Shown here: in pieces, positions 3,753-32,000 of the stretch
Layout of the letters: every line of letters starts with the position of its first letter
How positions within the stretch are numbered: position 1 is the first letter of the stretch
From: Citrobacter sedlakii NBRC 105722
GTDB taxonomy: Bacteria > Pseudomonadota > Gammaproteobacteria > Enterobacterales > Enterobacteriaceae
Direction of reading: 5' to 3'
DNA: 32,000 nucleotides
Assembly: GCF_000759835.1 (NCBI RefSeq)
Contig: NZ_BBNB01000008.1
Location: forward strand, 206,744 to 238,743
Made by a program: the position numbers and the translations under genes
The notes under the pieces: generated by a model
The model's database searches: none
Seen by the model: only the letters and a program-made list of their open reading frames with translations
Told to the model about the DNA's origin: nothing

Positions 3753-3905
3753 CAAGAGTAATGCAAACCAGAGGGTAAAACAGCTTCAGACATTATTTTC
3801 AGATTATTCATTTTAGTTTTCGACAAACAGATCACAGTTCGACGCCTGACGAAATTTTTAACCCTGCCCCTCAGATGAGAAGAGGCTGATAAGAAAGACT
3901 GACAT

Positions 3906-12159: not shown

Positions 12160-12806
12160 TCACTGTCTCCGGGCTTTATCAGCATCAACCCACAGCCAAA
12201 TGCGCGGCTTTTACCGTATCCCTGTATCAAACGTTGCAGGAATAAGCCCGGGTCATTGATCTCCAGCGTGCCTGAATAATCCACGCTGCTAAACTGAATC
12301 GCCTGCCGGGATTTGCCGCGTATGACCTGCTGCTGTCGATACGCGTCAACGCTCGCCCCCTGTAATGAAAATCCATTACGCTCCCCCTGACGAGCTAACC
12401 ACGCTAGCGCAACCTGCTGCTGATGAAGCCAGATATCCTGTGTGTCCGGGTCAGCTTTCATTTGCCGCTTAGCATCCATCAGCAGATCGTGACGTTTTCC
12501 TGCTTTGCAAATCGTTGGATTCGCTCGCAGAGTGAAGCGCAAGCGCTGCGCTGTATGTAAGTCAGGGAAAAACGGGCGGCATTCGGTATGAAATAATTCT
12601 CTTGACGCAGGCGGATTCACCGACAAAACAAAAAAGCGAAATGCCCCTTGCACTTCCTCCCGACGGTATAAAAACTGCCGTTCCTGCTCGTCGGGAAAAA
12701 GCGCCCATAACCACTGATGCATGACATATTCGCCGCGTTCCACCATATGAAGTAATTGAGAAGGCGACAGTTGACCGGTAGAGAGCGTTATTCTTGAGAG
12801 GTACAC
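12156..12806 (-). CDS. cas6e: Cas6e/CasE pre-crRNA endoribonuclease
   Basis: GTG at 12806 is preceded by a strong aaggagg SD and gives MYLSRITL..., the family-typical N-terminus. C-terminal motif is GCGLMLIKP. The 235-aa ORF-track version adds an unsupported 19-codon extension inside cas5. Confidence 0.9.
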   Translation of the reverse strand: MYLSRITLSTGQLSPSQLLHMVERGEYVMHQWLWALFPDEQERQFLYRREEVQGAFRFFVLSVNPPASRELFHTECRPFFPDLHTAQRLRFTLRANPTICKAGKRHDLLMDAKRQMKADPDTQDIWLHQQQVALAWLARQGERNGFSLQGASVDAYRQQQVIRGKSRQAIQFSSVDYSGTLEINDPGLFLQRLIQGYGKSRAFGCGLMLIKPGDSE

Positions 12807-13534
12807 ATTTCCTCCTTGAAGATCAGTGAACCCTGGTATACGGTACGCTCGGCAAATAACCATTGCTGACGGCTTAACGGCACGTCCCGACGACGCAGGA
12901 TTTTATTTGCCACCAACCCGTCATGCTCGCCTTCCCACCAGCAGGTCGGTTGCAGTTTGGGTAACCGAATGTTGAGCCCCTGGAGTTTTTCCTGGTATTG
13001 TAACCGGGCAGTGCTTAACACATCCGGGACATTTCCCCGCAGGAGCATTGGCATCAGCGGTAACGATAACGGATGGCTTTTCCGTCCCAGATACAGTGAA
13101 AAGGTCGGGTGCTTTAGTGCGTTCTGGAGACATTCCAGCGTAAAAGGCGCCCCTGGCGTTGTAACCACCGCGACCATCCACCACGCATCGCTGTAGTAAT
13201 CACGTCGTGAGATCAGCGCACTGAGCAAGTCCGGGTCCTGCAATTCTTCGCGGCGACTGAAATACCGCACTTTACGGACCTCTTTCGGCATCTGGACGGT
13301 GTGATAATCCCTCGCCCAGCGAGGCGAGTCGCTGGCGCACAACAAAAATTGATAGTGCGAATTAAGCGCGTTCAGTTGCGTTTCGTCGTCACGATGGATG
13401 CCAAGCGCCGCAGCCAGCAGTCCCAACAGTGCAGAACGCGACGGCAGTTCATGGGTATGACGAACCTCACCAGGAGCATCCACACCCCAGGAGGCCATCG
13501 GTCCATGAAGCTGAAAAAGCAGATATTGGTTCAT
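12788..13534 (-). CDS. cas5: Cas5e/CasD Cascade subunit
   Basis: 248 aa: MNQYLLFQLHGPMASWGVDAPGEVRHT... (the characteristic GPMxSWG N-terminus). Overlaps the cas6e start by 19 nt. Confidence 0.93.
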   Translation of the reverse strand: MNQYLLFQLHGPMASWGVDAPGEVRHTHELPSRSALLGLLAAALGIHRDDETQLNALNSHYQFLLCASDSPRWARDYHTVQMPKEVRKVRYFSRREELQDPDLLSALISRRDYYSDAWWMVAVVTTPGAPFTLECLQNALKHPTFSLYLGRKSHPLSLPLMPMLLRGNVPDVLSTARLQYQEKLQGLNIRLPKLQPTCWWEGEHDGLVANKILRRRDVPLSRQQWLFAERTVYQGSLIFKEEMCTSQE

Positions 13535-13543
13535 TAAGGGTCC

Positions 13544-14602
13544 TTACGCGCAGATAAAGTCCAGCACGTCTTTCATGCTCCCTTCTTTATTCATAACGTT
13601 GAAACCTACGGATTCAGTTTGCTGCGCGTAAACAGCGTTCATGTTTTCACGTAGCGCAGTGATGCGCTGTACCGACACGTTCAGTTGGTCCGAACCGACA
13701 ATAGGTTTGTAGAATGCCGCCGCCAGTGAACGAGGCTGATCAAAGCCTTTTTCCGCCAACGCCCAGTTGGCATACGCGCGGCTGGCAAAACTGTTTTGCT
13801 TACCGGTCGGAGAGACCTTCAGCGCAGCTTCCGTAAAGGCACACAGTGTTTGATTCGCCAGTTCTTCATTACCGTCCAGATTTTTTATCAGCAGATCTTT
13901 GTCGATACAGATATAGGTATAGAACAGCGCGGATCCGAAGCCTGTCTCACCAAGATGTCCAGCCCCCGCATCCTCCTGAGAGGCCTGACGGAAGTCATCA
14001 ACCGCAGTGAAAAAATCATCTTCCACCAGCGTTTCACTTACGCCAAACGCGTGTGCAACCTGACAGGCTGCTTCGATATTGAATTCAGGTTTATTGGCCA
14101 ACATACGGCCAAACATGGCGATGTCCACCGCCATTCGATCGCGACGCAGCAATGCCAGCTCGTCGTCCGTCGGTGCGCGATTTTCTTCTGCCAGTCGGGC
14201 AGCCAATGCCTTAACCGCATCAAATTCCACCGGGCTGATATGAATAAGTTGTTCGGTTTCAGCGTTGCTTAATTGATCTTTCGCTTTTTTATCGGTTTTC
14301 ACTTTCCCAAGGTAATCTGCGATTTTGGCGGCCCACTCGATCGCATGTTTCTCTCCTGCACCCTTTTCAATCATGATCTTCGCGGCTTCGCGTCCAATAC
14401 GACTACTACGAATGCCGATATGTCCCACCAGCGCCTGTTCAAACAAAGCAGAGGTACGCCAGGTGCGTTTCAGACTTTGTGAGGAAATGCGCAGACGCGT
14501 CGCCCCGCCCAGCACAACCGTCTTTGGCGAGCCGGTGTCATCACGGTTCAGGTTAGCGGCCGGATAAGCGGTAAGGATGTGAAGTTGTATAAAGGTAGTC
14601 AT
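13544..14602 (-). CDS. cas7: Cas7e/CasC Cascade backbone subunit
   Basis: 352 aa: MTTFIQLHILTAYPAANLNRDDTGSPKT... (Cas7e signature NLNRDD). Confidence 0.95.
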   Translation of the reverse strand: MTTFIQLHILTAYPAANLNRDDTGSPKTVVLGGATRLRISSQSLKRTWRTSALFEQALVGHIGIRSSRIGREAAKIMIEKGAGEKHAIEWAAKIADYLGKVKTDKKAKDQLSNAETEQLIHISPVEFDAVKALAARLAEENRAPTDDELALLRRDRMAVDIAMFGRMLANKPEFNIEAACQVAHAFGVSETLVEDDFFTAVDDFRQASQEDAGAGHLGETGFGSALFYTYICIDKDLLIKNLDGNEELANQTLCAFTEAALKVSPTGKQNSFASRAYANWALAEKGFDQPRSLAAAFYKPIVGSDQLNVSVQRITALRENMNAVYAQQTESVGFNVMNKEGSMKDVLDFICA

Positions 14603-14605
14603 TTT

Positions 14606-15166
14606 TTATCCCTGTTGATCGTTTTTATCATTGTCGCCAGCCTGGTAGTACTCCAGCGCCCAGCGGATTCGGATGAATTCGGTTGGCCGCTGTTGGCGGC
14701 GATGGTGGTTCAGCAAATCGTCGTTCTCCTGACACCAGCGGAAAACATCTTCTGCCAGCGAAATGAGGTTCACGGTTCCCTTCAGTAGCTGAACCGCGCG
14801 GCGAAGTTGACGCAGTAACTCATCTGGCGTTTTTACCGCCGAGAGCCGTGCAAAGCGCAGCTCAGACATAACAGCGCGATTCCCGTCTTTATGTCCAAGT
14901 TGCTCCGCAAAACTCTGGCGCTCATCAAGAGATTTAACCTGTGCCGCCAGCGCCGCCGTCAGGGCTAAAGCGATAAAACGCCATTCCTTTCCCCCCATCT
15001 TCCAGAGCGTATGCGTCTGCATCAGCAGGTCACGAAATCCTTCAGACAGGTAAGCGTCCGAGAGGGTTTTACTGCGCCGTAGGCTGGCACGTAGCCCTCT
15101 TTTTTCCTGCAATGTGCCATGCCACTGACGCAGCACGGTCTTATGCTCATCCCTCAAAAAATTCAT
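14606..15166 (-). CDS. cse2: Cse2/CasB Cascade small subunit
   Basis: 186-aa basic helical protein in the canonical position between cse1 and cas7. ATGA overlap with the cse1 stop. Confidence 0.9.
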   Translation of the reverse strand: MNFLRDEHKTVLRQWHGTLQEKRGLRASLRRSKTLSDAYLSEGFRDLLMQTHTLWKMGGKEWRFIALALTAALAAQVKSLDERQSFAEQLGHKDGNRAVMSELRFARLSAVKTPDELLRQLRRAVQLLKGTVNLISLAEDVFRWCQENDDLLNHHRRQQRPTEFIRIRWALEYYQAGDNDKNDQQG

Positions 15167-16719
15167 TCAGCAGCCTCCTGCTTTTTTGAACTGGCAGCTT
15201 TTGCCCCATGCTTCCCCGCCAGGCTGGTGATTAATTTCTTACGTGCCCACATACTTTGTTTTAGATCCTTGTTCTCGTAGGGACTGATAAAAACATGTTC
15301 ATCAAAATAATGGCGGGCGAAACGCTTGATCTTTTTCTCGCATTTACGGAGTTTTTCTTCCGGGTTTTGCCCGTCTACAAGTTCTCGTACCAGCGTCAGA
15401 AAATCGCCCTGCGTGCAGTGCCAAAAATCGATATCAATGAAACTAAAATCGCCACGTGCGCCTTTGGCATCTGAAAACCAGGCTTCTTTCAGTGCGCTAC
15501 GAAGCTGAATGAGCGTTTTATTGGCCATTTGCACGGTCTTTTGCAGATCGGGGATAAGGTTTTCCGTCAACAGAAGTGGCAGGTGATGTTCATACCAGCA
15601 ACGGGCTTTCATATTTTCGAAGTCATAGCCAAAGCCCCATAAGCCAACCCTGGCGCCAGTGTCCAAATGCCCATTAAACACTCTCACCACCTGCGCGGGT
15701 GATTCGTCATTGCTTTCCGATTGGTTGCTCTGATTTAGTCCCAACCAGTCACGCCAAACCAGACCACCAGGCTGCGGTTTAACGGAAAAGAAACCGTCGC
15801 CCCCTTTTAAAGGCTTCCGATACGGTGTCAACGGATGCCGCCAGCCTTCGTAGTTGACGCCGTAGTTTTTGGTCGTCATTAAGCTCAGCAACGCGTCGCT
15901 CTCAGATTGACAGATATCGCATGTACCGATCTCCGTAATGGTGAAATCCAGCCGGATACGCCGCGGCATTCCCCAGTACGCCTGCAATTTATGCACCTGT
16001 TCTGGCGTCGTGACGTCATTTTTGCCCTCACTGGTTCGCGTGGCGGCAAGCCAGGGGAAGACGGAAGCATCATAGATCTCCGGCAGCGGAAGATTGGCCG
16101 CATCCTGCGGCATAACATTCAACCACAGTTTGCGCCAGAGTGGCGTCTGACGGTTATGCTCGTATTCGTGCAGTTCGATAAGCGTGGTCATTGGTCCGCC
16201 ACCACGCAGCCCGGTGCGATAACCTTTGCCGCCCGCTGGCGCATTCAGTTGCAGCGAAAATAAGGCCAGCGCCGCGCAGTGTGGGCAAAAACGTTCTGTT
16301 ACGCCGCGTTTGATAAAGTGGTCTTTATGTAATTTAATGGCTTGCACGCCAGGCGTTTCGGGAAGCAAAGACGCTATCAATACGTTCTCGCCCGTTAGCG
16401 GCTCAAAATCCTGCATAAATGAGGGCGTTTGTGGTCCAAACTGAAAAGCCGGTTCGATATGTGCCAGTGCGGAACGGAATTTTTCTTCTGGTAAGCCTTC
16501 GTCCCAGATGTCATCCCAGCGTTGGCGGCTATTTGGTGCAAAACTGGTTTGCAGCAGTCCCAACAAAAACTGCCACGCCGCACCTTGTAAATCCGCCCTT
16601 GACGCCGCGATATCGATAACATTCTCATTCGCCAGACAGGCTGGCGCCAGCTTGCCCTGGGTACCGTCTTTAAACCGCACTGGCAACCATGGGGTAGTAA
16701 TCAGTGAAAAATTATTCAT
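15163..16719 (-). CDS. cse1: Cse1/CasA Cascade large subunit
   Basis: ORF open to 16749. ATG 16719 gives MNNFSLITTPWLPVRFKDG..., matching the family N-terminus (E. coli MNLLIDNWIPVR). ATG 16749 would overlap cas3 by 20 nt. Either start is possible. Confidence 0.9.
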   Translation of the reverse strand: MNNFSLITTPWLPVRFKDGTQGKLAPACLANENVIDIAASRADLQGAAWQFLLGLLQTSFAPNSRQRWDDIWDEGLPEEKFRSALAHIEPAFQFGPQTPSFMQDFEPLTGENVLIASLLPETPGVQAIKLHKDHFIKRGVTERFCPHCAALALFSLQLNAPAGGKGYRTGLRGGGPMTTLIELHEYEHNRQTPLWRKLWLNVMPQDAANLPLPEIYDASVFPWLAATRTSEGKNDVTTPEQVHKLQAYWGMPRRIRLDFTITEIGTCDICQSESDALLSLMTTKNYGVNYEGWRHPLTPYRKPLKGGDGFFSVKPQPGGLVWRDWLGLNQSNQSESNDESPAQVVRVFNGHLDTGARVGLWGFGYDFENMKARCWYEHHLPLLLTENLIPDLQKTVQMANKTLIQLRSALKEAWFSDAKGARGDFSFIDIDFWHCTQGDFLTLVRELVDGQNPEEKLRKCEKKIKRFARHYFDEHVFISPYENKDLKQSMWARKKLITSLAGKHGAKAASSKKQEAAE

Positions 16720-16729
16720 TGGGGTATAC

Positions 16730-19399
16730 TCAAACCTCCGTCTTGCCAATTAAACCTTCCCTTACGGAATAGCCGCATGATGCGTCGTCAGACACCACAA
16801 TCACATTGACGAACGCCTTGTTCTGATGCTGCTTAACGCACCACTGCTGAAGCTGTTCACCTTCCAGCAAACAGAAATCCTGCGCATGTTTCTTCCACCA
16901 GCCTTCGCGTACGCGCAACAGGCTCATCTCCCAGCCCTTTTCTCCAGGAGCATAAGGAATAACCGTATCCTCGACGATCCTCGCCAGCCATAGAGCAATA
17001 GATTCCTCAGACAAACGAGTGGAGAGTTTTTCAGGCAGAAATTCGCTGCTATCCGGACTGTAGCCAGGCGCAAAATTGAGGGTATGCTGCATCGCAGACG
17101 CACGATCGCAGTAAAATTTACCTTCCTGCGCCTGCTCTGCTTTCGCAAACCCCGCAGGTATGACAACCTCTTCGCCATAAACCGATTCGATCAACAAACG
17201 GGCGGACTGCGGCATCTGAATCTTGCCTTGCATTCGCAATACGCGTTGCGTCAGCCACAGGCGGCCATGCTCGGGGTAGACATAAGCGCTGTTTCGCATG
17301 GCGGCAGAGAACCACTCTTCTGCTGGTTCGTCGTCCCATTCGGGGGCGAGGATATGCAGTACCGGTGAGGGGCGTTCGTCCTGACCGGGCATTTTGAGCA
17401 AACCGTTACAGTCGCGAATATGGCGCTGTAGTCGGCCTGCCCGCTGGATTAAAAGATCGACAGGAGCCAGATCGGAGATCATCTCGTCGACATCAATATC
17501 GAGCGACTGCTCTATAACTTGCGTCGCGATAATGACGCTTCCAGCACGTAACGAATGGCTTTTTTTGCCAAACACGCTCAGCGTGCGATCTTCGATTTTC
17601 TGACGATCGTGGAATGCAAAGCGACTATGAAAAAGCATCAGCCTTTCTGCACTCACCACGCTGTTGCCGAGCAGTTGCCGGTATGAACGGATGGCGTCAT
17701 CAACGGAATTTCGAATCCATGCAATGCACCGCCCTTCACTGACGACATCTTTAATGTGATCAATGCAGGCGAGTTCATCATGCAACCAGGCGATATTGAC
17801 GCTACGCTCAACCTCTTTACGGGTATTAACGTGCTGAGAGATAATCTCGTTTCCCGCCACTTGAGTCAGCCAGGGATAATCGTTGAATCCCAATAACGGC
17901 GCTTGTGTTTGACATTTCCCCCCTCGCGAAAAAGCCGAGACCAGCCTGTCACGCTGGCGCTGGGATAACGTTGCAGAGAGTAAAATGGTGGGGTTGCCAT
18001 CCCGAGCTTGCTTTTCAATCAGGCTTTCGAGGAGTTTCGACATCCAGGCATCATAAGCATGGATTTCGTCGGCGATTAAGACCTTATTTCTCAGTCCCAA
18101 CAGGCGGAGATTGTTGTGTTTAAATGGCATAACCGCCATCAATGCCTGATCCAACGTGCCTACGCCTACGTCAGCCAGCAAGGCCTTTTTACTGCTGTCA
18201 GCGAACCAGGCGGCGCAGCCCTGCGCAAAGGGTTGCAAGTCATCCCTTTCCTCAGAACCCGACATATCACAGGACCAGACAGACTGATTAAAATGTTCCA
18301 TCAACGCGCGAGCGCTGTGCGCCAGCACCAGACTGGGGCGCGAGCCAGGCTGATAAAGCGACAGCCACGTTTTTTCCATTCGTCCGTACATGGCATTGGC
18401 GGTCGCCATTGTTGGCAATCCGAAATAAATTCCGTTCGCTTTCCCCTCCGCCATGAGCCGATGCGCCAGAATTAACGCAGCTTCGGTTTTCCCTGCTCCC
18501 GTAACATCTTCAAGGATAAACAACTGGGCATCGGATTTATCGATATCCAGTTCAAGCGCCTTTTGTTGTAACGGCGTGGGATGCTGAATAAAAGGAAATA
18601 GGGTATTCATTCCTGAGAAGGAGGCAACAGCGGGAGAAGATGGAAAAACAGAGATCGCTTTTTCCGCGTTAATTAATGTCTGATGCCAGTACTCCTCTAT
18701 CGACATTCGCCTTGCAATGCGTGGGAAATAGCGAGTGGAAGATCCCGTCCAGTCAGCAAGAACAATTGCTGCTGAAATAAACCATGAGAGATGCTTAAAT
18801 AGATCAATTCCTTCATCATCATCCCAGAATGCAGGAACGTTAATGAGCGGGAATAATGGTTTTACCGCCAGAAGAAAGTCGTGAGCGGCCTCTTTATCTG
18901 ACGGACGGAAGTGATTCAGTTCCTGAACCGCAGCAGGAGGCCGCCCGTGGTGCCCGGTCGTTAATGGCATCCACAGCGCCACCGCGCGCTTCAGTTTGCG
19001 CAATGTCAGCGTAGACGGTGGGAGAAGCTCTGCGCATCCGCTTAGAAAATGCGTCCACAGCCAGAAACCAAGCGTTGCATGAGGGATCTTTTCATACTCT
19101 CTCGGCAGATCGTTTGAGGAGGTCAGATCCGGGTGGCAATAAAGCTGTTGAAACGAACGGGCAAACTTACCGATATCATGCCAACAAAGCAGCCAGGCAA
19201 AAAATTGTGCGGCCTGTTCAGTGCTAATTAATCCTAATTTACGAAGATAGTTATCGATAGAATAAATATTATTTTTTACCATCCAATAACCAACAGCGGC
19301 CACATCCAGAGAATGCCAACACAATAAATGGTAATCATCACCGTCGGATTTATCGCCGTTACGGGTTTTACCCCAGTAGTCAAATATCGCCACACACAC
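16730..19399 (-). CDS. cas3: Cas3 HD nuclease / SF2 helicase (type I-E)
   Basis: 889 aa. HD motif CWHDIGKF, Walker A DVTGAGKTEAA, motif II ADEIHAYD. Immediately upstream of cse1. Confidence 0.96.
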   Translation of the reverse strand: MCVAIFDYWGKTRNGDKSDGDDYHLLCWHSLDVAAVGYWMVKNNIYSIDNYLRKLGLISTEQAAQFFAWLLCWHDIGKFARSFQQLYCHPDLTSSNDLPREYEKIPHATLGFWLWTHFLSGCAELLPPSTLTLRKLKRAVALWMPLTTGHHGRPPAAVQELNHFRPSDKEAAHDFLLAVKPLFPLINVPAFWDDDEGIDLFKHLSWFISAAIVLADWTGSSTRYFPRIARRMSIEEYWHQTLINAEKAISVFPSSPAVASFSGMNTLFPFIQHPTPLQQKALELDIDKSDAQLFILEDVTGAGKTEAALILAHRLMAEGKANGIYFGLPTMATANAMYGRMEKTWLSLYQPGSRPSLVLAHSARALMEHFNQSVWSCDMSGSEERDDLQPFAQGCAAWFADSSKKALLADVGVGTLDQALMAVMPFKHNNLRLLGLRNKVLIADEIHAYDAWMSKLLESLIEKQARDGNPTILLSATLSQRQRDRLVSAFSRGGKCQTQAPLLGFNDYPWLTQVAGNEIISQHVNTRKEVERSVNIAWLHDELACIDHIKDVVSEGRCIAWIRNSVDDAIRSYRQLLGNSVVSAERLMLFHSRFAFHDRQKIEDRTLSVFGKKSHSLRAGSVIIATQVIEQSLDIDVDEMISDLAPVDLLIQRAGRLQRHIRDCNGLLKMPGQDERPSPVLHILAPEWDDEPAEEWFSAAMRNSAYVYPEHGRLWLTQRVLRMQGKIQMPQSARLLIESVYGEEVVIPAGFAKAEQAQEGKFYCDRASAMQHTLNFAPGYSPDSSEFLPEKLSTRLSEESIALWLARIVEDTVIPYAPGEKGWEMSLLRVREGWWKKHAQDFCLLEGEQLQQWCVKQHQNKAFVNVIVVSDDASCGYSVREGLIGKTEV

Positions 19400-24793: not shown

Positions 24794-26065
24794 ATGGTTG
24801 ACGATTTCGATATTATTTTTGTCGGGGCAGGGATAGCGGGAACCGCTTGTGCTTTACGTTGCGCCCGCGCCGGACTGTCGGTGCTGTTGCTTGAGCGTGG
24901 AGAACGCCCCGGCAGTAAAAACCTTTCCGGCGGACGACTCTACGCGCATGCGCTCGCCGAACTTCTCCCCCACTTCCAACGCACCGCCCCGCTGGAACGA
25001 CGAATTACCCAGGAAAACCTCACGTTACTCACGCATGACGGCGCGACAACCTACTCCAGCCTGCGTTCGGACGGGGAGTCATGGAGCCTGTTGCGCGCCC
25101 GCTTCGATCCCTGGTTTGTCGCCCAGGCGGAAGCCGAAGGTGTTCAGTTTATCAGCGGCGTGACGGTTGAAGCGCTGCATTGTGAAAAGGGCAGGGTTTG
25201 CGGCGTGATTGCTGACAACGAGACGCTGCGCGCCCGCTATGTTGTCCTGGCGGAAGGCGCAAACAGCCTTCTGGCGGAACGTTATGGTTTTTTGCCGCCG
25301 CCATCGCGAAACAGTATGGCGCTGGGGATAAAAGAAACGCTGGCGCTGGACAAACAATTGCTTGAGGAGCGTTTTCGCTTATCTTCTGAAGAAGGCGCAG
25401 CGATGTTGTTCAGTGGTGAAATTTGTGCCGATCGGCCCGGCGGAGCGTTCCTGTATACCAATCAGGACACGCTCTCTTTTGGCGTCGTCTGTCCTCTCTC
25501 CTCGCTGGCGCAGGGTGATATTCCGGCAGGCAGACTGCTGGAGCGGCTGAAAACGCATCCGGCGCTTCGCCCTTTACTCAAAGGCAGCGAAACACTGGAG
25601 TACGGCGCCCATCTGGTGCCGAAAGGCGGCCTGCATAGTCTGCCCGTGCAATATGCAGGGGAAGGCTGGCTGCTGGTCGGAGATGCGCTACGTAGCTGCG
25701 TCAATACCGGCTTCACAATCAGAGGAATGGACATGGCGCTTCTCGGCGCGCAGGCCGCGGCGCAAACGCTAATTCACGCCTGCCAGAAACGCGATCCGCA
25801 AAATCTTTTTCCGGCCTACCATCAGGATATTCAGCACAGTCTGCTGTGGGACGTTCTGCAACGCTACCGTCATCTTCCGGACCTGTTACAGCGCCCGGGA
25901 TGGTATCGTCAATGGCCCGCGCTGATGGATGATGTTTCCCGCGAAATCTGGCGTCAGGGAGAGGGACCGGTGGCCCCGTTGCGCCAGGTTGTCTGGCGTC
26001 ATCTCCGTCGTCACGGCCTGCGTCATTTAGCAGGCGATATTATCAGGAGCATACGATGTCTGTAG
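24794..26065 (+). CDS. ygcN: FixC-like FAD-dependent ETF:quinone oxidoreductase family protein
   Basis: ATG 24794 follows an aaggag SD and gives MVDDFDIIFVGAGIAGTACALRCARAGLSVLLLERGE (GxGxxG dinucleotide fold), 423 aa. The ORF-track GTG at 24770 is an unsupported extension. Confidence 0.88.
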   Translation: MVDDFDIIFVGAGIAGTACALRCARAGLSVLLLERGERPGSKNLSGGRLYAHALAELLPHFQRTAPLERRITQENLTLLTHDGATTYSSLRSDGESWSLLRARFDPWFVAQAEAEGVQFISGVTVEALHCEKGRVCGVIADNETLRARYVVLAEGANSLLAERYGFLPPPSRNSMALGIKETLALDKQLLEERFRLSSEEGAAMLFSGEICADRPGGAFLYTNQDTLSFGVVCPLSSLAQGDIPAGRLLERLKTHPALRPLLKGSETLEYGAHLVPKGGLHSLPVQYAGEGWLLVGDALRSCVNTGFTIRGMDMALLGAQAAAQTLIHACQKRDPQNLFPAYHQDIQHSLLWDVLQRYRHLPDLLQRPGWYRQWPALMDDVSREIWRQGEGPVAPLRQVVWRHLRRHGLRHLAGDIIRSIRCL

Positions 26066-26316
26066 CCCGCAACGTCTGGCGTCCCGCCAGTTTTTCCCAT
26101 ATCGTTCCCGCCAGGCAGATCGACCACGAAACGGCCGCGCGGCTGATCGCCGCCTGCCCTGCCGGGCTGTATTCCCTGTCACCGGAAGGCGAATTGCTCA
26201 TCGACTTTCGCGGCTGTCTGGAGTGCGGCGCCTGTCGCCTGTTGTGCGACGATGAAATGTTGCTACAGTGGCGCTATCCCGCGTCCGGTGCTGGCATCGC
26301 TTACCGCTTCGGCTAA
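26056..26316 (+). CDS. ygcO: FixX-like ferredoxin-type protein
   Basis: 86 aa with ACPAGLY and CLECGACRLLC cysteine motifs. Overlaps the ygcN 3' end by 10 nt, as fixC-fixX pairs do. Confidence 0.85.
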   Translation: MSVARNVWRPASFSHIVPARQIDHETAARLIAACPAGLYSLSPEGELLIDFRGCLECGACRLLCDDEMLLQWRYPASGAGIAYRFG

Positions 26317-26334
26317 TATTTATAAGGATAATCT

Positions 26335-26910
26335 ATGCCCCTGTTACACCTGCTCCGCCAGAATCCCGTCATTGCCGCCGTAAAAGATAATGCCAGCCTG
26401 CAGTTAGCGATTGACTCCGAATGTCTGTTCATCTCTGTGCTGTATGGCAATATCTGCACCATCAGCAACATCGTGAAGAAGATCAAGAATGCCGGAAAAT
26501 ATGCGTTTATCCACGTTGATCTGCTGGAGGGAGCATCGAATAAAGAGGTGGTCATTCAGTTTCTGAAGCTGGTCACCGAGGCAGATGGCATCATTAGCAC
26601 CAAAGCCCCGATGCTTAAAGCCGCGCGAGCGGAGGGCTTTTTCTGCATCCATCGCCTGTTTATCGTCGACTCCATCTCTTTTCACAATATTGATAAGCAA
26701 GTCGCGCAGTCAAATCCGGACTGTATTGAGATTTTGCCCGGCTGCATGCCAAAAGTGCTGGGTTGGGTCACGGAAAAAATACGCCAGCCGCTGATTGCCG
26801 GCGGGCTGGTCTGCGATGAAGAAGACGCGCGCAATGCTATAAAAGCCGGCGTGGCGGCGCTTTCCACCACCAATACCGACGTCTGGACGCTGGCTAAAAA
26901 GCTGAATTAG
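26335..26910 (+). CDS. ygcP: GlpP-family (glycerol-3-phosphate responsive) antiterminator-like protein
   Basis: 191 aa: MPLLHLLRQNPVIAAVKDNASLQLAIDSECLFISVLYGNI...HVDLLEG.... The length and pattern are typical of GlpP-like proteins, and the position matches E. coli ygcP. Confidence 0.8.
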   Translation: MPLLHLLRQNPVIAAVKDNASLQLAIDSECLFISVLYGNICTISNIVKKIKNAGKYAFIHVDLLEGASNKEVVIQFLKLVTEADGIISTKAPMLKAARAEGFFCIHRLFIVDSISFHNIDKQVAQSNPDCIEILPGCMPKVLGWVTEKIRQPLIAGGLVCDEEDARNAIKAGVAALSTTNTDVWTLAKKLN

Positions 26911-26950
26911 CCTCAGCGGCCGGAGGGCAAACACCCTGAGGCTACGTTTT
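26908..26950. terminator. Hairpin between convergent ygcP and ygcQ that includes both stop codons
   Basis: tagcctcag (26908-26916) pairs with ctgaggcta (26936-26944), a perfect 9-bp stem with a 19-nt loop. tttt follows on the plus strand only. Confidence 0.4.
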
Positions 26951-27796
26951 CGTACACGCCACGAGTTCCTCCAGCACCTGCGGCCAGTCATCGACGATAC
27001 CGACATCCGCCTGGGAAAAAACAGGCGCGTCGGGATCGCAATTTATCGCCACGACAAACTGACTCTGGCGAATCCCGGCCATCAACGCCGCCGCGCCGGA
27101 AGCTCCCGCCACAATACAGACATCCGGCGAAAGCAGATGGCCGGTGATGCCAACCATCCGTTCCACATCCACTCCGCCGTTCATCACCCGCGCCCGGCTG
27201 TATCCCGCCTCGGCGCGTAGCGCCTGGGCCAGAGCGGTGATTTTATCCTCTTCAACCTCGCGGCCTCCCTGCCCAACCACCAGAACATGGCTGGCCTGTA
27301 ACAGAGGGTGCCTGTTTTCGCTTTTCACGCTTTCAAGGTGTTCGAGCCAGTCAGGTGGTTCCGCCGGGACGATACGTCGTTCCGTCATAACTGGCAAAAC
27401 CGACGCTGACGCGCCCGCATCAGGCTGGCGCGCCAGTGAGAGGCACACAGGACATCCGGAGACAGACAGGGACGCTAAGAGCGCGCTCCCCCAATGTGAT
27501 TTACTCACCCGCCCTTGTTGCAGGTCTGCGGTAACCACCTGACATACGCTATCACCCCGTAGCCGCCAGGCCAGACGTGTTGCAAGCTCATCGCCGAACG
27601 AACCAGAGGGAAAGATCAGCACCCCGGCAGGCGTTATCGCCCATTGGGCGGCCAGCGCGTCGAGCACCTGTTCCGCAACCGCCGGTACGGAATCGATTAC
27701 CCAGCGCTCCACTTCCGCCGCACCGGGGGCATTTGCCGCGATCCATCCCGCCATTGCCGCACATTCTCCGGGCGTGGTAATCATTGCTATTTTCAT
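26942..27796 (-). CDS. ygcQ: Electron transfer flavoprotein alpha-subunit-like protein
   Basis: ATG 27796 overlaps the ygcR stop (ATGA) and gives MKIAMITTPGECAAMAGWIAANAPG..., 284 aa. The C-terminal half has the ETF-alpha FAD-binding pattern (VVGQGG, VAINCDPDAPVF). The 372-aa ORF-track version is an out-of-frame overlap with ygcR. Confidence 0.85.
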   Translation of the reverse strand: MKIAMITTPGECAAMAGWIAANAPGAAEVERWVIDSVPAVAEQVLDALAAQWAITPAGVLIFPSGSFGDELATRLAWRLRGDSVCQVVTADLQQGRVSKSHWGSALLASLSVSGCPVCLSLARQPDAGASASVLPVMTERRIVPAEPPDWLEHLESVKSENRHPLLQASHVLVVGQGGREVEEDKITALAQALRAEAGYSRARVMNGGVDVERMVGITGHLLSPDVCIVAGASGAAALMAGIRQSQFVVAINCDPDAPVFSQADVGIVDDWPQVLEELVACTKT

Positions 27797-28575
27797 GGCG
27801 CGCACCTCTGACGCAAATAGTCCCGCCATAAAATCCGGGCTTTTTCCTGCACCGTCGCGCCGTCGATAATTTTCGCGCACCGTCGCTGTTCCGGTCGCGT
27901 CAGCGCCAGACAATTGCGCCCCTGAGGAACCGCAATGTCGACAGGCTGGCGGATAATCTCCGCTTTGGCCGCCGCCAGGCGCTGGCGCATGCCAGGCACA
28001 GGGAGCGCCACTTCGCCACACTGTCTGACGGCGATGACCGCCGGAAGACGTACCCGGCAACGACGAAGGCCGGACTCCATTCGTTGGTCAACGCTGATAA
28101 AGGGCGCCTCAAGCGCAAAACGCGTCACCTGGCTAAAGCATGGCCACCCCAGCATTTCCGCCAGCAGAAACGGCGTTTGCCCGTTCTGCCCTTCGCTACT
28201 CTGGCATCCAGTGATAATCAGGTCGGCCCCGTGACGGTAATGCCAGTCGGCGATCTGCCCGGCGATGAATGCTGGCGCAAATCGCAGATCCGCCCCGCTC
28301 TCCAGCAGTACCGTCTTATCAAAACCCAGCGCGGAAAAATAGCGTAACCAGTGCAGCGACCGTTCATCGCCGATGTTCAGCGCCGTCAGGATCATCTCAC
28401 AACCTGCCCGGCGCTCAGCCAACAGCAATGCGGCGGCGGCCTGCTCGTCGGCGCCAGGCGAGCTGCGCAGCAAAGCGGTGTCGGGGCCGCAGGTATCCTG
28501 TGTCGCAGCCAGCCAGTCCTTTTCCGCCAGCATGCCGGAGTCCGGCTCTGCTTTAAACGCTAACAGAATGTTCAT
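27793..28575 (-). CDS. ygcR: Electron transfer flavoprotein beta-subunit-like protein
   Basis: 260 aa: MNILLAFKAEPDSGML... (typical ETF-beta N-terminal strand). Translationally coupled to ygcQ. Confidence 0.85.
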   Translation of the reverse strand: MNILLAFKAEPDSGMLAEKDWLAATQDTCGPDTALLRSSPGADEQAAAALLLAERRAGCEMILTALNIGDERSLHWLRYFSALGFDKTVLLESGADLRFAPAFIAGQIADWHYRHGADLIITGCQSSEGQNGQTPFLLAEMLGWPCFSQVTRFALEAPFISVDQRMESGLRRCRVRLPAVIAVRQCGEVALPVPGMRQRLAAAKAEIIRQPVDIAVPQGRNCLALTRPEQRRCAKIIDGATVQEKARILWRDYLRQRCAP

Positions 28576-29902
28576 TTACCCCTCCCTGTCTTTTCTCCAC
28601 CCTCCCGGCCACCGCCAGCGGCAATGCCTTCGTTTCCGGCGCCCATAGCCAGGTCACGATAAATCCAATCAGTAACACGCCCGCCAATAGCAACAACGTG
28701 ACCTGCATTCCCCATTGCGCCAGCGTCAAAGGTAACAGACCGGTGCTTATCGCAGCGCCAAGCCGACTCATCGCCGTCGCAAATCCAACGCCCAGCGAAC
28801 GAATATCAGTCGGGAAGCTTTCCGCAGGCAGGATCCCCACCAGATTGCTGACAGCAGAAATCGTGGTGCTGAACAGAACAAACAGCAGCAAAGTGAAAGC
28901 GCTGCCTGGCGGCAAGAAAGCCATCACGAACAGCGTTGCCGCAAGCAGAAGGAAACTGCCGAGCAGGAACCGACGATGCGTCAACAGATGCGTTAATAGT
29001 AGCCCCAGTAGTGCGCCGACAATTAATAGCGCATTCAGCAGCAGGCTGGCGGTAAGCGCATCCTCCAGACCAACAGTCCGGGCAATCGTCGGCAGCCAGG
29101 TATAGATAACAAACCACGGGATCACCAGGCAGACAAAGAAAACGCTGTTGAAAACAGTTCGCCGCCAGTAGCGAGCGGAAAAGAGCGTTTTAATATGTTT
29201 AGTGGATGCGGCGGCAATTTCATCGCCGGGCAGGACGTGCGGGCCAAAATAGCGATGAACCACCGCATGAGCTTCTGCAAAGCGTCCCTGGCGTATCAGC
29301 CAGCGAGGTGATTCCGGCGTTCCCCAACGAAGCAAAGTAATCAACAGTGCGGGCAACGCCGCCGAAGCAAGCAGCCAGCGCCAGGCATCCGGGCTTGCGG
29401 AAATGAAATGATGTCCAACCAGACTCGCCAGTACGTAGCCGATAGTCCATACCACGCTGAATGCTCCGAGCAGAACTCCCCGATGACGCCGCGGCGCAAA
29501 TTCAGCCAACAGCGTATGGCCGACGGAATAATCGCCGCCAAGCCCAATCCCGATGAGGATCCGTAACGCGATCAGCTGTTCCGGCGTTGAGACGAAAAGC
29601 TGCAAAAATGAAGCGATAGTGATCAGCATAAAGCTGAAGGTAAAAATCTTCTGTCGGCCGATATGATCGGACACCCAGCCCAGTATAAGGCTACCGAGAA
29701 AAAGCCCGAGCAACGCGGCTCCGCCAATCATCCCGGCCATAAAAGGCGTCAGTTGCATTGCTGACATCAATGGGATAATGGCGTAACCCACCCCACCAAG
29801 AACATATCCGTCAGTAAGATGCGCGCCAAAGGTTAACGCCGCAATACGGCAGTGAAAAGCATTTAACGGTAAGTCATCCATGCGCACCGGTGAAGTGTTC
29901 AT
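28553..29902 (-). CDS. ygcS: MFS transporter (sugar/metabolite porter type)
   Basis: 449 aa, about 12 hydrophobic segments, MFS motif A GWVSDHIGRQK. aagggg SD before ATG 29902. The 3' end overlaps the ygcR start by 23 nt. Confidence 0.88.
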   Translation of the reverse strand: MNTSPVRMDDLPLNAFHCRIAALTFGAHLTDGYVLGGVGYAIIPLMSAMQLTPFMAGMIGGAALLGLFLGSLILGWVSDHIGRQKIFTFSFMLITIASFLQLFVSTPEQLIALRILIGIGLGGDYSVGHTLLAEFAPRRHRGVLLGAFSVVWTIGYVLASLVGHHFISASPDAWRWLLASAALPALLITLLRWGTPESPRWLIRQGRFAEAHAVVHRYFGPHVLPGDEIAAASTKHIKTLFSARYWRRTVFNSVFFVCLVIPWFVIYTWLPTIARTVGLEDALTASLLLNALLIVGALLGLLLTHLLTHRRFLLGSFLLLAATLFVMAFLPPGSAFTLLLFVLFSTTISAVSNLVGILPAESFPTDIRSLGVGFATAMSRLGAAISTGLLPLTLAQWGMQVTLLLLAGVLLIGFIVTWLWAPETKALPLAVAGRVEKRQGGVNEHSVSV

Positions 29903-29923
29903 TTCTACCCCTTCATTGTCCGG

Positions 29924-29955
29924 TAAAAAAAGTGGCTTCCCGAGCGGGAAGCCAC
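29924..29955 (-). terminator. Strong rho-independent terminator between ygcU and ygcS
   Basis: Minus-strand RNA reads GUGGCUUCCC-GCUC-GGGAAGCCAC followed by UUUUUUU (10-bp GC-rich stem, 4-nt loop). It begins 8 nt after the ygcU stop and ends 21 nt before the ygcS ATG. Confidence 0.85.
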
Positions 29956-29963
29956 CTGTTACG

Positions 29964-31418
29964 TTATTTCTCGATGGGATAAATCGTCCCCGTATTCATT
30001 ATGCCGTTCGGATCAAACTGGCGTTTGAGACCTTCCAGAAGCGGCCATGCGCTGCCATGCTCCAGCTTGCTCCAGTGAACGCGATGCTTACCAATGCCGT
30101 GGTGATGCACCATTGAGCCGCCCAGTCTGATAGTTTCTTCGCAGATGATCTTATTCAGTGGATTATGGTATTTATCGATCTCTTCTTCCGGCTTACAGTC
30201 CACTACGTTGTAGTCATAGACAAAATACATATTGGTGCCGTTGATATAACTGTGAGAAGAGTGACCGCCGAGCATGGTGATATCATCCGCGTGGGGAAAC
30301 TCATTACGGATACGCCTGATCACATTTTCGTAGATCTGGTGAATACATCCCCAACCGCCCGACACTTCTGTCGTGAATCCCATATTGCCGGTTTTCAGGA
30401 TCTGCACCCGCTCAGCCGCCACTTTCTCCGGCCCCCAGTTCAGTTGATTGAACCAGTTCTCAATAAGCCTGCTGTCCACACGCTGGCACTCCGGATAGCG
30501 CGCCACGATCTCAGCAATCCCTTCACCGGTCGCTTTCGCTATCCGCGCGTTTCCCTCGGCCATAAAGATGAGTACGCATTTGCCATCGGCAAAATGGGTG
30601 AAGTGCTGGGTGCCGTCCTCGGCGTCATACAGGCGCGCAATGGAGGGCCGATATCCCTCTACCATCACATCGCGGAGGATATCGAAACCAACCTTCATAT
30701 CATCAAGGATATAGCCGTAAAAGAGATTGTTTTCCGGCGTAAATTTAAAAATTTTCACTGTGACTTCAGTGATATAGCACAGCGCGCCTTCATTACCGAT
30801 AATAATATGGCGAATATCCGGCCCGGCAGCGCGGCGCGGGACGTTCTTAATTCGGGTGACAGTTCCATCCGCCAGCACCGCTTCCAGCCCGACGACCATA
30901 TCTTCAATCGCGCCGTACAGGGTGGAAAACTGCCCAATACTGCGGGTCGCTACCAGCCCACCCATCTGAGCCAGGGGTTTAGATTGCGGCGAATGGCCGG
31001 TGGTATAACCTTTCTCACGTAGCGCGTTCTCCAGAATCTCAAGCGGAACGCCGCACTGCGCCGTCGCTTGCATATTTTCAACGTCAATGCTCAGGATCTG
31101 ATTCATCCCTGCGCCATCAAGGACAACGGAATTTTTGACTACGGTTTCCAGCCCGCCTTCGGTTGCGGATGCGCCGGTACGCGGTACGCCATTGATTTTA
31201 TGCTGGTTCATAAACGCCAGTACGCGGGACACCTGTTCTGTCGATCCCAGCTTCACGACAGCCGCGGGCAGTGGCAGCGTATAAACGCCGTGAATATCCG
31301 CATATTTGCGAAAGCGATCAATACTGTTTTTCTTTAACACCGTTTCATCGGTAATGACACGTTCTGAACCGACAATTTCTTTTAACTGGTCAACAATCGC
31401 TTCTCGAGATAAAGTCAT
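29964..31418 (-). CDS. ygcU: FAD-linked oxidase/dehydrogenase (GlcD / alkyl-DHAP-synthase-like PCMH fold)
   Basis: ATG 31418 follows a ggaagg SD and gives the 484-aa MTLSREAIVDQLKEIVGSERVITDETVLKKNSIDRF.... Nearly colinear and identical with the remembered E. coli YgcU. FAD motif PRTGASATEGG. The ORF-track start at 31442 adds 8 codons. Confidence 0.9.
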   Translation of the reverse strand: MTLSREAIVDQLKEIVGSERVITDETVLKKNSIDRFRKYADIHGVYTLPLPAAVVKLGSTEQVSRVLAFMNQHKINGVPRTGASATEGGLETVVKNSVVLDGAGMNQILSIDVENMQATAQCGVPLEILENALREKGYTTGHSPQSKPLAQMGGLVATRSIGQFSTLYGAIEDMVVGLEAVLADGTVTRIKNVPRRAAGPDIRHIIIGNEGALCYITEVTVKIFKFTPENNLFYGYILDDMKVGFDILRDVMVEGYRPSIARLYDAEDGTQHFTHFADGKCVLIFMAEGNARIAKATGEGIAEIVARYPECQRVDSRLIENWFNQLNWGPEKVAAERVQILKTGNMGFTTEVSGGWGCIHQIYENVIRRIRNEFPHADDITMLGGHSSHSYINGTNMYFVYDYNVVDCKPEEEIDKYHNPLNKIICEETIRLGGSMVHHHGIGKHRVHWSKLEHGSAWPLLEGLKRQFDPNGIMNTGTIYPIEK

Positions 31419-31480
31419 AGCCCTTCCTTCCTGATAAGTCATTCGGAATAATGAATAAAAACAGAAACCACCGCCATAAA

Positions 31481-32000
31481 TTAGCGGACCAGATAACCAC
31501 CATCGACGACCAGTAAATGACCGTTAACATAATCAGAAGCCTGACTGGCAAGGAATATCGCCGCGCCCATTAAATCCTGAGTATCTCCCCAACGATTTGC
31601 CGGGATATGATCCAACACCCGTTGATTTGTTTCCGGATTACTGCGCGTCGCTAATGTAATATCTGTTGCATAATAGCCAGGGGCAATGCCATTAACCTGG
31701 ATATTGTATTGCCCCAGTTCATCACAATATGCTTTCGTCAACCCGGCAAGCGCATGTTTAGTTGCGGAATAAGCTGGCGACCATTGCCCGCCAAGATAAG
31801 AGAACAAAGAGCAGATATTAATAATTTTACCACTATGTTGCGGGATCATTATTTTGGCAGCCTCATGGCTTAACTCAAATGCCGCAGTCAGGTTAACGTC
31901 AATCATCGGGTCCCAGTCCGCGCGGCCAAAGTCCAGTACTTTGTTCAGCTTACAAATCCCGGCGTTATTCACCAGAATATCCACGGTGCCGAAACGTTCG
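31481..32000 (-). CDS. ygcW: Short-chain dehydrogenase/reductase (KduD-like), C-terminal part; 5' end beyond the window
   Basis: The frame stays open to the window edge (...ERFGTVDILVNNAGI...). Catalytic YSATKHA (YxxxK) is present. Ends ...VVDGGYLVR. Confidence 0.85.
   Translation of the reverse strand, partial: ERFGTVDILVNNAGICKLNKVLDFGRADWDPMIDVNLTAAFELSHEAAKIMIPQHSGKIINICSLFSYLGGQWSPAYSATKHALAGLTKAYCDELGQYNIQVNGIAPGYYATDITLATRSNPETNQRVLDHIPANRWGDTQDLMGAAIFLASQASDYVNGHLLVVDGGYLVR

Follow-up and report, generated by a model that had tools for sequence, protein, structure and literature searches.

The ygc cluster of Citrobacter sedlakii as a putative catabolic system with an alkyl-DHAP-synthase-like flavoprotein, a dedicated electron-transfer flavoprotein, and GlpP-type control

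The ygcN-O-P and ygcQ-R-S-U-W genes of Citrobacter sedlakii NBRC 105722 (the ygc cluster) lie at positions 24794-32000 of a 32,000-nucleotide stretch of contig NZ_BBNB01000008.1 (the window, i.e., the whole stretch of DNA that was analysed). Several described systems resemble parts of this cluster. In the glp regulon of Bacillus subtilis (glpP, glpFK, glpD, and glpTQ), an FGGY kinase makes the phosphorylated inducer, a flavoprotein acts on a phosphorylated compound, a GlpP-family antiterminator is present, which YgcP resembles (compared with the solved structure 3kts), and each regulated operon is preceded by a 5' leader in which a short purine-loop hairpin overlaps the 5' arm of a terminator. 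The FixABCX/EtfABCX systems, i.e., E. coli fixABCX and ydiQRST and Thermotoga EtfABCX, have the four protein types of the ygc cluster, namely the electron-transfer flavoprotein (ETF) subunits EtfA and EtfB, a flavoprotein resembling FixC, and a ferredoxin resembling FixX. In LctBCD of Acetobacterium woodii (PDB 7qh2), as in ygc clusters, the gene of a vanillyl-alcohol oxidase (VAO)-type flavoprotein adjoins etfB-etfA, and a complex of YgcU with its ETF is presumed by this likeness. Alkyl-dihydroxyacetone phosphate (DHAP) synthase (ADPS, also AGPS; PDB 4bby and 2uuu) is the best match of the flavoprotein YgcU by sequence and fold, and its catalytic Arg, Tyr, and HHH loop are kept in YgcU.

The ygc cluster differs from each of these systems. 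Unlike the DAO-family GlpD, the ygc flavoprotein is of the VAO/ADPS type, and a short-chain dehydrogenase/reductase (SDR) is added. The electrons would not go straight to quinone but through an ETF of the cluster's own, together with FixCX-like proteins, the leader helix is GUUAC/GUAAC instead of the GGUC/GACC of B. subtilis, and the effector is presumably other than glycerol 3-phosphate. In contrast to FixABCX, the ygc genes are divided between the convergent operons ygcNOP and ygcW-Q, the scores of all four proteins fall short of the curated family cut-offs, and the partner is a VAO-type flavoprotein, not an acyl-CoA dehydrogenase. The metal site of LctD is absent from YgcU, and YgcQR is very distant from LctBC (E-values of 3e-17 and 4.5e-4), although the anaerobe gene order etfB-etfA-VAO2 mirrors lctB-lctC-lctD. 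Here, VAO2 is our label for the second VAO-type flavoprotein of anaerobe clusters. YgcU is about 170 residues shorter than ADPS, without its N-terminal domain, and is linked to ETF, kinase, and SDR in a catabolic, Crp-dependent setting, whereas ADPS itself requires no electron acceptor.

The cluster is read here as a ten-gene catabolic system under control like that of the Bacillus glp genes, in which a polar compound would be phosphorylated and oxidised, with a flavin step carried out by YgcU and ETF. The probability of this reading is put at about 0.5. The cluster is an already known orphan gene set and its existence itself is not new. No published substrate was found in the literature searched by gene names and enzyme-name combinations, which returned genome-scale lists only; the earlier note on this DNA, made from the letters alone, had likewise named none. 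In a 2026 PNAS paper, YgcU was still an FAD-binding oxidoreductase without known role; D-serine induced it 1.69-fold, and no phenotype was seen on deleting it. YgcS of E. coli is homologous to NiaP, and its overexpression increases nicotinamide mononucleotide production by a mechanism that is not known (PMC8601175). The yqcE-ygcE genes are on a list of Crp-activated genes (PMC8085971). The mentions in a riboswitch-prediction paper naming ygcW concern the CRISPR region, not the ygcW leader. In the literature searched, the redefined core, the ADPS-type active site, and the proteobacterial GlpP-type leader RNA with its quaternary-amine regulon links appear to be unreported.

About 100 related loci were compared. 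The gene surroundings of distant YgcU homologues were examined along with 80 loci fetched at one per species. For counts, 77 loci were informative, i.e., 40 from Enterobacterales and 37 from other phyla, with neighbour classes assigned by BLASTP against reference proteins. The SDR was found in 75/77 loci (39/40 and 36/37, respectively) and the FGGY kinase in 72/77 (38/40 and 34/37). The invariant core consists of the SDR YgcW, the flavoprotein YgcU, and the FGGY kinase YgcE. It is usually joined by the GlpP-type antiterminator YgcP, the gene of which was present in 39/40 Enterobacterales loci and 15/37 of the others. Between Citrobacter/E. coli and Sporomusa, identity is 57-80% for the three core enzymes (SDR 80%, kinase 57%) and 59% for the antiterminator. 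YgcU is 66-95% identical across phyla. Each of its best 120 database matches reaches at least 71% identity, with Sporomusa, Alkalihalobacillus, and Desulfobacula among them; YgcU of the window is 95% identical to that of Citrobacter braakii. Besides many other Enterobacterales, related loci are found in sulfate reducers, in acetogens, and in halophilic bacilli. The earlier note had treated the genes as one functional unit, and synteny and the 77-locus comparison agree with it. Its component identities also held in the Pfam and NCBIfam scans and the open reading frame (ORF) listing, and the co-occurrence with kinase genes that it had raised is seen in the 72 loci. Its description of the pathway as complete did not hold, because the FGGY kinase, among the most conserved partners of YgcU, sits outside the window.

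The ETF and FixCX proteins are accessory components. ETF genes follow ygcU in 58/77 loci, i.e., 30/40 in Enterobacterales, past an intervening ygcS, and 28/37 in other phyla, where etfB starts within 30 nt of the ygcU stop in 26 loci, mostly overlapping it. The FixC-like YgcN was found in 29/40 Enterobacterales loci and in 0/37 of the other phyla. It is present in 29 of the 30 ETF-containing Enterobacterales loci and in none of the ten ETF-less ones; YgcNO is an enterobacterial addition functioning with ETF. The links of ETF to YgcU and of YgcNO to ETF, both suggested from the window beforehand, are consistent with these counts. VAO2 follows etfA in 21/37 other-phyla loci, and one of the 40 Enterobacterales loci has a weak match elsewhere in the locus. 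In eight ETF-less enterobacterial loci, ygcS-Fae-aldo/keto reductase genes and a LysR regulator take the place of ETF. A flavodoxin-like substitute for ETF was considered in the ETF-less Enterobacterales and rejected as a conserved partner, as it occurred in only three loci.

The ETF subunits are divergent. Against solved proteins, YgcQ matched EtfA with E-values of 9e-21 to 7e-12, and YgcR matched EtfB with about 6e-11 at best. YgcQ is 31% identical (6e-41) to EtfA and YgcR 28% identical (2e-35) to EtfB of the Sporomusa cluster. YgcQR and the Sporomusa-cluster ETF are mutually nearer (1e-35, 1e-41) than to any solved ETF (1e-11 to 1e-21). Because they are only 28-31% identical yet nearest to each other, the cluster ETF is considered an old but fast-evolving member. 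Both subunits are recognized by Pfam, and their scores in the curated FixA and FixB models, 35 bits (cut-off 219) and 56 bits (cut-off 549), were far too low for membership. YgcN scored 346 bits in the FixC model (cut-off 610) and YgcO 65 bits in the FixX model (cut-off 166). By these curated thresholds, YgcNO would be classed as relatives of the FixC and FixX families, not as members. In the Clostridia/Bacillota loci L067, L081, and L086, a second, divergent ETF pair was observed after VAO2, and each of these clusters has two VAO-type flavoproteins and two ETFs.

YgcU was assigned by sequence, active-site residues, and fold. Its best solved match was alkyl-DHAP synthase 4bby (1.3e-38), ahead of glycolate oxidase (2e-25) and LctD (1.5e-21), and D-lactate dehydrogenase (D-LDH) was also well behind. 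The residues R270, Y406, and H446-448 of YgcU align with R419, Y578, and H615-617 of ADPS (guinea-pig numbering; HMMER alignment), i.e., the residues mutated in PDB entries 4bc7 and 4bca. They are invariant in alignment A1, which holds 12 homologues from several phyla. D-2-hydroxyacid dehydrogenases have a His/His/Glu metal site with the motifs GHxGDGNxH and EHGxG. This triad of the GlcD/LctD/D-2-hydroxyglutarate dehydrogenase type is absent from YgcU, which has the motifs GGHSSHSYINGTNMY and HHHGIGK. At the metal-site positions YgcU reads GGHSSHSY..NMY, and the triad is replaced by His...Tyr and HHH. VAO2 retains the triad (GHVAGNHVH and SEHGVGK), therefore YgcU and VAO2 are distinct enzymes. 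The best NCBIfam match of YgcU was the GlcD model TIGR00387, with 141 bits vs a cut-off of 568, and a weak match to the DprE1 model (1.9e-5) was also found. Judged from its active-site residues, YgcU would not be a GlcD-type hydroxy-acid dehydrogenase, and its active site points to a DHAP-like keto-phosphate, not a carboxylic acid.

The p-cresol methylhydroxylase (PCMH)/VAO FAD-binding fold and the C-terminal cap domain are present in YgcU (PF01565 FAD_binding_4, 1.8e-35; PF02913 FAD-oxidase_C, 6e-17). The N-terminal domain/fatty-alcohol tunnel of ADPS (580-660 aa) is absent, i.e., YgcU has 484 aa and the alignment starts at query position 59-86 against ADPS 138-233. Because this domain is missing, YgcU is not taken to be an ether-lipid synthase. 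An AlphaFold model of YgcU from a shallow alignment (mean predicted local distance difference test score, pLDDT, of 65.7, with active-site loops below 50) was used for fold-level comparison only, and its top 33 Foldseek matches in PDB were all AGPS (E-value 6e-25, TM-score about 0.7). In Desulfobacula (L005 and L064), a second, divergent three-gene set adjoins the ygc-like cluster. It encodes a closer ADPS homologue of 561 aa (2uuu, 1.6e-63) with an N-terminal extension, here labelled VAO3, an FGGY kinase, and a GlpD-like dehydrogenase. This set may serve ether-lipid or glyceryl-ether metabolism, and it suggests that the DHAP-like ketone is first made by a separate dehydrogenase, before an ADPS-type enzyme acts.

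The other core enzymes fit a DHAP-like substrate of YgcU, since the families of YgcW oxidise a penultimate hydroxyl and FGGY kinases include ketose 1-kinases. The nearest families of YgcW are KduD and gluconate 5-dehydrogenase, which oxidise the penultimate hydroxyl of a terminal diol. The window fragment matched adh_short_C2 (8.2e-43) and the KduD model NF005390 (5e-72), and full E. coli YgcW scored 349 bits in that model (cut-off 369). YgcE is nearest to the autoinducer-2 kinase LsrK, its best solved relative, and to glycerol kinases and xylulokinase. The phosphorylated-metabolite option, one of several substrate classes offered in the earlier note, is the one favoured by the evidence.

A leader RNA of about 70 nt precedes ygcW and yqcE, and was found by reading 320 nt upstream of SDR genes. 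From E. coli to Halobacillus and Sporomusa, the motif is (A/G)UUACYAGAG - 4 to 7 nt - GAGAAARGUAAY - variable hairpin top - UUACYUUUCUC - U-run. Besides both copies in L001, the element was found at equivalent sites in L008-L047, L003, L056, L057, L059, L067, L072-L077, L080, L081, L084, and L087-L098. A covariance model (R1) was run over all loci, and 35 distinct copies were aligned (alignment A2). Two mutually exclusive helices, i.e., a terminator and an antiterminator, are both backed by covariation in this alignment. In the terminator helix of 17 bp, 89.8% of cells are paired and six pairs have two-sided changes. No shuffle matched the observed pairing or covariation score, and slid controls were all much lower. 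The antiterminator helix of 5 bp lies upstream and sequesters the GUAAY segment, with 99.4% of cells paired. Its outer pair covaries, being A-U in 17 sequences and G-C in 17. No Rfam family matched the leader at the gathering threshold, and only chance-level matches were obtained at E<=1.

The distribution of the leader follows that of the GlpP-type gene. In each enterobacterial ygcW|yqcE intergenic region examined, two leader copies were present, one per operon. In Firmicutes, one copy precedes the SDR operon, and the leader also stands before operons of betaine/carnitine/choline transporters (BCCT) and of MttB. L067 and L081 have an extra internal copy just upstream of ygcU. No copy was found in loci without a GlpP-type gene (Desulfobacterales and Thermoleophilia), or inside the window, as expected since the window ends within ygcW. 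In a pattern scan of metagenomes, 11/11 independent matches stood beside a GlpP-like gene, and the next gene was an SDR in eight, MttB in one, and the contig end in two.

The PF04309 match of YgcP spans the full profile, positions 1-173 of 173, and the solved GlpP structure 3kts was matched at 5.4e-27. The B. subtilis glpD 5' untranslated region (UTR) is a proven GlpP target (sequence from PMC9604022 Table S4). It folds into a short hairpin, GGUC...GACC, with the purine-rich loop CUGAGAUGAGGAGA, which overlaps the 5' arm of the terminator. Because this layout is the same, the ygc leaders are considered a variant of the known GlpP element, and by this analogy YgcP is very probably the antiterminator of the ygcW and yqcE leaders. 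By the same analogy, its effector would be the product of the kinase.

Clues to the substrate were sought in the genes that flank the core in the other-phyla loci. BCCT transporters were found in ten loci and OpuC-type ATP-binding cassette (ABC) transporters with an OpuAC binding protein in five to six. MttB-family methyltransferases were found in at least ten, accompanied in some of them by a corrinoid protein and by a pterin-binding methyltransferase. BCCT, OpuC-type, and MttB proteins handle trimethylammonium or dimethylsulfonium compounds. The leader stands directly before BCCT genes in L003, L056, L067, and L081 and before MttB genes in L094 and in the MttB - PanB-like - OpuABC - proline-racemase-like operon of L084. 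Because a GlpP-type leader directly precedes these genes, the link to betaines exceeds adjacency. The substrate, or a tightly coupled product, would carry a trimethylammonium- or dimethylsulfonium-type group, as the leader-linked neighbours handle such compounds; a trimethylammonium-type group on the substrate is probable. Other recurrent neighbours are aldehyde dehydrogenase, aldehyde:ferredoxin oxidoreductase, aldo/keto reductase, iron-containing alcohol dehydrogenase, Fae, and PanB-like proteins. The recurrence of these aldehyde- and one-carbon (C1)-handling proteins hints at release of an aldehyde or of a fragment at the formaldehyde level.

Named compounds were also considered as substrate and not adopted. 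Glycerol or glycerol 3-phosphate would leave the SDR and the betaine transporters unexplained, and the hosts already have glp genes. For glycerophosphocholine a simple diesterase would be enough, and carnitine or choline leaves no role for the FGGY kinase. C4 polyols, converted to erythrulose 1-phosphate, would explain the C1 neighbours Fae and PanB-like but not the betaine transporters. S-glycerylcysteine was considered as well. The PanB-like protein of L084, of the ketopantoate hydroxymethyltransferase family, recurs with 61% identity near MttB genes in L078, a Thermoleophilia metagenome-assembled genome. In L040-L046 and L076, which are Enterobacterales loci without ETF and FixCX genes, the Fae-like gene stands beside ygcP with genes of a ygcS paralogue, a LysR regulator, and an aldo/keto reductase; Fae would not be expected in these hosts, which are without tetrahydromethanopterin.

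In the proposed pathway, a small polar compound with a terminal diol would be imported via YqcE and/or YgcS. YgcW would oxidise its penultimate hydroxyl in the manner of KduD and gluconate 5-dehydrogenase, and YgcE would phosphorylate the terminal hydroxyl, giving a DHAP-like head group. YgcU may then bind the keto-phosphate in its alkyl-DHAP-synthase-type site and perform a flavin-dependent step. It would exchange electrons with the dedicated ETF YgcQR, which in Enterobacterales YgcN and YgcO would link to the quinone pool. The phosphorylated intermediate would act as effector of YgcP, and effector-bound YgcP would stabilise the short antiterminator hairpin, so that transcription could continue into ygcW-ygcU and yqcE-ygcE. 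Expression of ygcS-R-Q would be lowered by another terminator, located after ygcU and independent of YgcP.

Several points weigh against this reading. The substrate, the kinase activity, the redox role of YgcU, and the binding of YgcP are sequence-derived predictions, the sequence in which SDR, kinase, and YgcU act was guessed from family resemblance, and electron flow toward quinone is an assumption; for E. coli FixABCX, a supply of electrons to a reduction has been proposed. The residues kept in YgcU belong to an enzyme whose use of flavin involves no net redox change, and the YgcU model is of low confidence. ETF is missing from 19/77 loci, i.e., from halophilic Bacillaceae and from the Serratia proteamaculans, Pantoea, and Erwinia group, and the flavin step may therefore do without an ETF of its own, or involve no net redox. 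No leader copy precedes ygcN or ygcS in any locus, and together with the terminator between ygcU and ygcS this makes co-regulation of ETF and FixCX uncertain. In Enterobacterales and several metagenomic loci the transporters belong to the major facilitator superfamily (MFS), i.e., YqcE-like and YgcS, not to the betaine type, and the quaternary-amine lead is weaker there.

The loci without ETF fit a different explanation, i.e., ether-lipid synthesis run in reverse. Here the kinase and SDR would turn a 1-substituted glycerol, O- or N-linked, into a 1-substituted DHAP, and YgcU would expel the substituent by covalent flavin-N5 chemistry of the ADPS type to leave DHAP without net redox; ETF and VAO2 or YgcNO would serve another step or hold the flavin redox state. 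All catalytic residues of ADPS are kept in YgcU, and the members of the core triad have counterparts in alkylglycerol kinase, in alkyl-DHAP reductase, which is an SDR in mammals, and in ADPS. The closer ADPS homologue of Desulfobacula adjoins the cluster and has a separate dehydrogenase that already makes the ketone, and betaine-type transporters and MttB would suit a quaternary-amine leaving group. However, a redox-neutral enzyme would hardly explain why ETF translation is coupled to that of ygcU in most anaerobes, the N-terminal domain of ADPS is absent, no candidate substrate is known as common in the enterobacterial habitat, and analogy is the sole basis. This explanation is possible but unlikely. 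A bolder variant keeps the ETF, namely that YgcU is a catabolic offshoot of ADPS that breaks the C-O or C-N bond of a substituted DHAP derived from a glycerol-linked quaternary ammonium compound, by covalent flavin chemistry coupled to ETF. The substrate may then be a deacylated betaine-lipid head group or a dihydroxypropyl-trimethylammonium compound. We regard this variant as distinctly unlikely. If true, it would be a new degradation route for glycerol compounds with an ether or ammonium link, widespread in bacteria ranging from E. coli to sulfate reducers, under a GlpP-type riboregulator not described for Proteobacteria in the literature searched.

The electrons may also run the other way, as proposed for E. 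coli fixABCX in carnitine metabolism. YgcNO and YgcQR, being homologous to FixCX and FixAB, would carry them from quinol or NADH to YgcU, which would reduce or reductively cleave the keto-phosphate, e.g., by reductive loss of an ammonium group beside the carbonyl. The anaerobe ETF sits between YgcU and a D-2-hydroxyacid-dehydrogenase-type protein, a possible electron donor, and the quaternary-amine context recalls carnitine and crotonobetaine reduction. Still, aerobic Bacillaceae keep the core triad with no ETF or other donor gene nearby, the sequence gives no sign of ETF potential or bifurcating capacity, and the chemistry is speculative, so that such a reductive role is very doubtful. A pair of epimerases after the precedent of DprE1/DprE2 has a slim chance. 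YgcU would oxidise a hydroxyl of a phospho-compound to ETF and quinone, and YgcW would re-reduce it with opposite stereochemistry to a common phospho-polyol. SDR and YgcU are the most tightly co-conserved, usually adjacent, pair, and the weak DprE1 match agrees, but this is pure analogy without supporting context, and the ADPS-type residues and quaternary-amine neighbours stay unexplained. Slimmer still is the chance that YgcU is a D-2-hydroxyacid dehydrogenase of the lactate or glycolate type and that the cluster oxidises an imported hydroxy acid through ETF, like LctBCD, an established case of an ETF paired to a VAO-type dehydrogenase. YgcU does match LctD, glycolate oxidase, and D-LDH by sequence and fold and has GlcD as its best, though sub-threshold, NCBIfam model. 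Yet ADPS is the better match by 13 orders of magnitude, the His/His/Glu triad is missing in YgcU and present in the adjacent VAO2, and a phosphorylated substrate is indicated by the linked genes of an FGGY kinase and of a GlpP-type regulator. The GlcD/LctD analogy drawn in the earlier note was thus not sustained, the ADPS residues standing in place of the metal triad.

For the ten-gene catabolic system, the analysis defines a core triad, a partner ETF, and an RNA switch usable as reporter in inducer screens. The chemical search space is narrowed to terminal diol or ketol compounds, probably with a trimethylammonium-type group. If ADPS-like chemistry is true, it would be a new reaction type in bacterial osmolyte or lipid-head-group catabolism and would give a function to one divergent, uncharacterised ETF group.

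Gene identities in the window were taken from the ORF listing and from Pfam and NCBIfam scans, and are given with the other coordinates in Table 1. All genes of ygcN-O-P and ygcQ-R-S-U are intact, and of ygcW only the 3' two-thirds are present. The true start of ygcQ was set by start codon analysis, and the length of YgcU was counted from M9 of the ORF beginning at 31442. YgcN matched the NCBIfam models FixC (2.7e-103) and PRK10015 (2.1e-112), both under curated cut-offs, and in Pfam DAO (1.6e-14) and weakly ETFQO_UQ-bd (2.7e-5). The best NCBIfam subfamilies of YgcS, all under cut-off, were aromatic-acid/H+ symporter, sugar porter, and organic-cation transporter. The gene junctions in the window are of operon type. 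Overlaps of 10 nt (ygcN/ygcO) and 23 nt (ygcS/ygcR) were found, the ygcR stop and ygcQ start share ATGA, and the gap between ygcO and ygcP is 18 nt.

Table 1. Coordinates of ygc cluster features in the window and of related features in compared loci.
Feature	Sequence	Coordinates	Strand	Description
ygcN	window	24794-26065	+	FixC-like FAD oxidoreductase, putative ETF:quinone oxidoreductase subunit; ATG start, ribosome-binding site AAAGGAG
ygcO	window	26056-26316	+	FixX-like ferredoxin; NCBIfam FixX 4.6e-18, under cut-off; CxxCxxCxxxC + CP motifs
ygcP	window	26335-26910	+	GlpP-family RNA-binding antiterminator; PF04309 G3P_antiterm 1.5e-61
ygcQ	window	26942-27796	-	ETF alpha, 284 aa, short N-terminal domain; PF00766 ETF_alpha 8.9e-16
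ygcR	window	27793-28575	-	ETF beta; PF01012 ETF 7.9e-12
ygcS	window	28553-29902	-	MFS transporter; Sugar_tr 7.8e-54
Terminator-like hairpin + U7	window	29930-29957	-	Between ygcU stop and ygcS start
ygcU	window	29964-31418	-	VAO/PCMH-type flavoprotein, alkyl-DHAP-synthase branch, 484 aa
ygcW	window	31481-32000	-	KduD/gluconate-5-dehydrogenase-like SDR; 3' part, 172 of ~261 residues, truncated by window end
CRISPR array	window	about 9720-10666		Type I-E
ORF set at cas position	window	11242-19399		Place of E. coli I-E cas genes (cas3 to cas2)
Leader RNA	L001	16369-16437	-	
Leader RNA	L001	16572-16638	+	
CRP-type palindrome	L001	about 16440-16570		ygcW|yqcE intergenic region
Three-gene set	L005	349-5317	-	Desulfobacula
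Three-gene set	L064	4062-8951	-	Desulfobacula
Second ETF pair	L067	14797-16600		After VAO2
Second ETF pair	L081	13614-15523		After VAO2
Second ETF pair	L086	14805 onward		After VAO2
ygcS paralogue, Fae-like gene, aldo/keto reductase, LysR regulator	L040-L046, L076	about 1200-5500		Beside ygcP
Operon with leader	L084	6997-14032	-	MttB-family methyltransferase, PanB-like, OpuC-type ABC transporter, proline-racemase-family protein
PanB-like gene	L078	13979-14824		Thermoleophilia

The DNA of the region is 78-81% identical to that of E. coli, Citrobacter, and Klebsiella. Because it is only about 80% identical to E. coli, the ygc gene names were used by synteny. The E. coli gene order and orientation, i.e., type I-E cas, cysHIJ, queD, ygcNOP, and ygcQRSUW, are fully kept. 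In E. coli itself, the region was matched in 4400/5426 complete genomes (~80%), and divergent yqcE (MFS transporter) and ygcE (FGGY kinase) follow past ygcW. In the window genome, yqcE, the kinase gene ygcE, and both leader RNAs would lie past position 32000 as parts of the system.

The hairpin between ygcU and ygcS has a G+C-rich stem of 12 bp (-23.1 kcal/mol). In Enterobacterales loci, a G+C-rich hairpin occupies this position despite sequence differences, and it ends the operon in ETF-less loci. The terminator may therefore be the older element, with ygcS-R-Q added behind it later. Because the terminator separates ygcU from ygcS, expression of ygcS-R-Q needs read-through or an unseen promoter, and ETF expression equal to that of ygcWU cannot be assumed behind so strong a terminator. 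In the ygcW|yqcE intergenic region of L001, and likewise in L008-L028, a perfect CRP-type palindrome was found, which is TGTGATTACGATCACA in E. coli. A second TGTGA..TCAC-like site lies between the two leader elements. These sites fit the reported Crp activation of yqcE-ygcE.

Two public records in the comparison look wrongly labelled. Locus L043, titled Pseudomonas lundensis, encodes proteins 89-97% identical to those of Serratia proteamaculans-group loci, and the cluster of L056, titled Patescibacteria group bacterium, shares 82-93% identity with the Sporomusa cluster. Both records are likely to reflect contamination or mis-binning. Elsewhere in the window, a type I-E CRISPR array was observed with the repeat CGGTTTATCCCCGCTGACGCGGGGAACAC and a 61-nt period. 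As in E. coli, the array and the ORFs at the position of the cas genes are located upstream of cysHIJ and queD.

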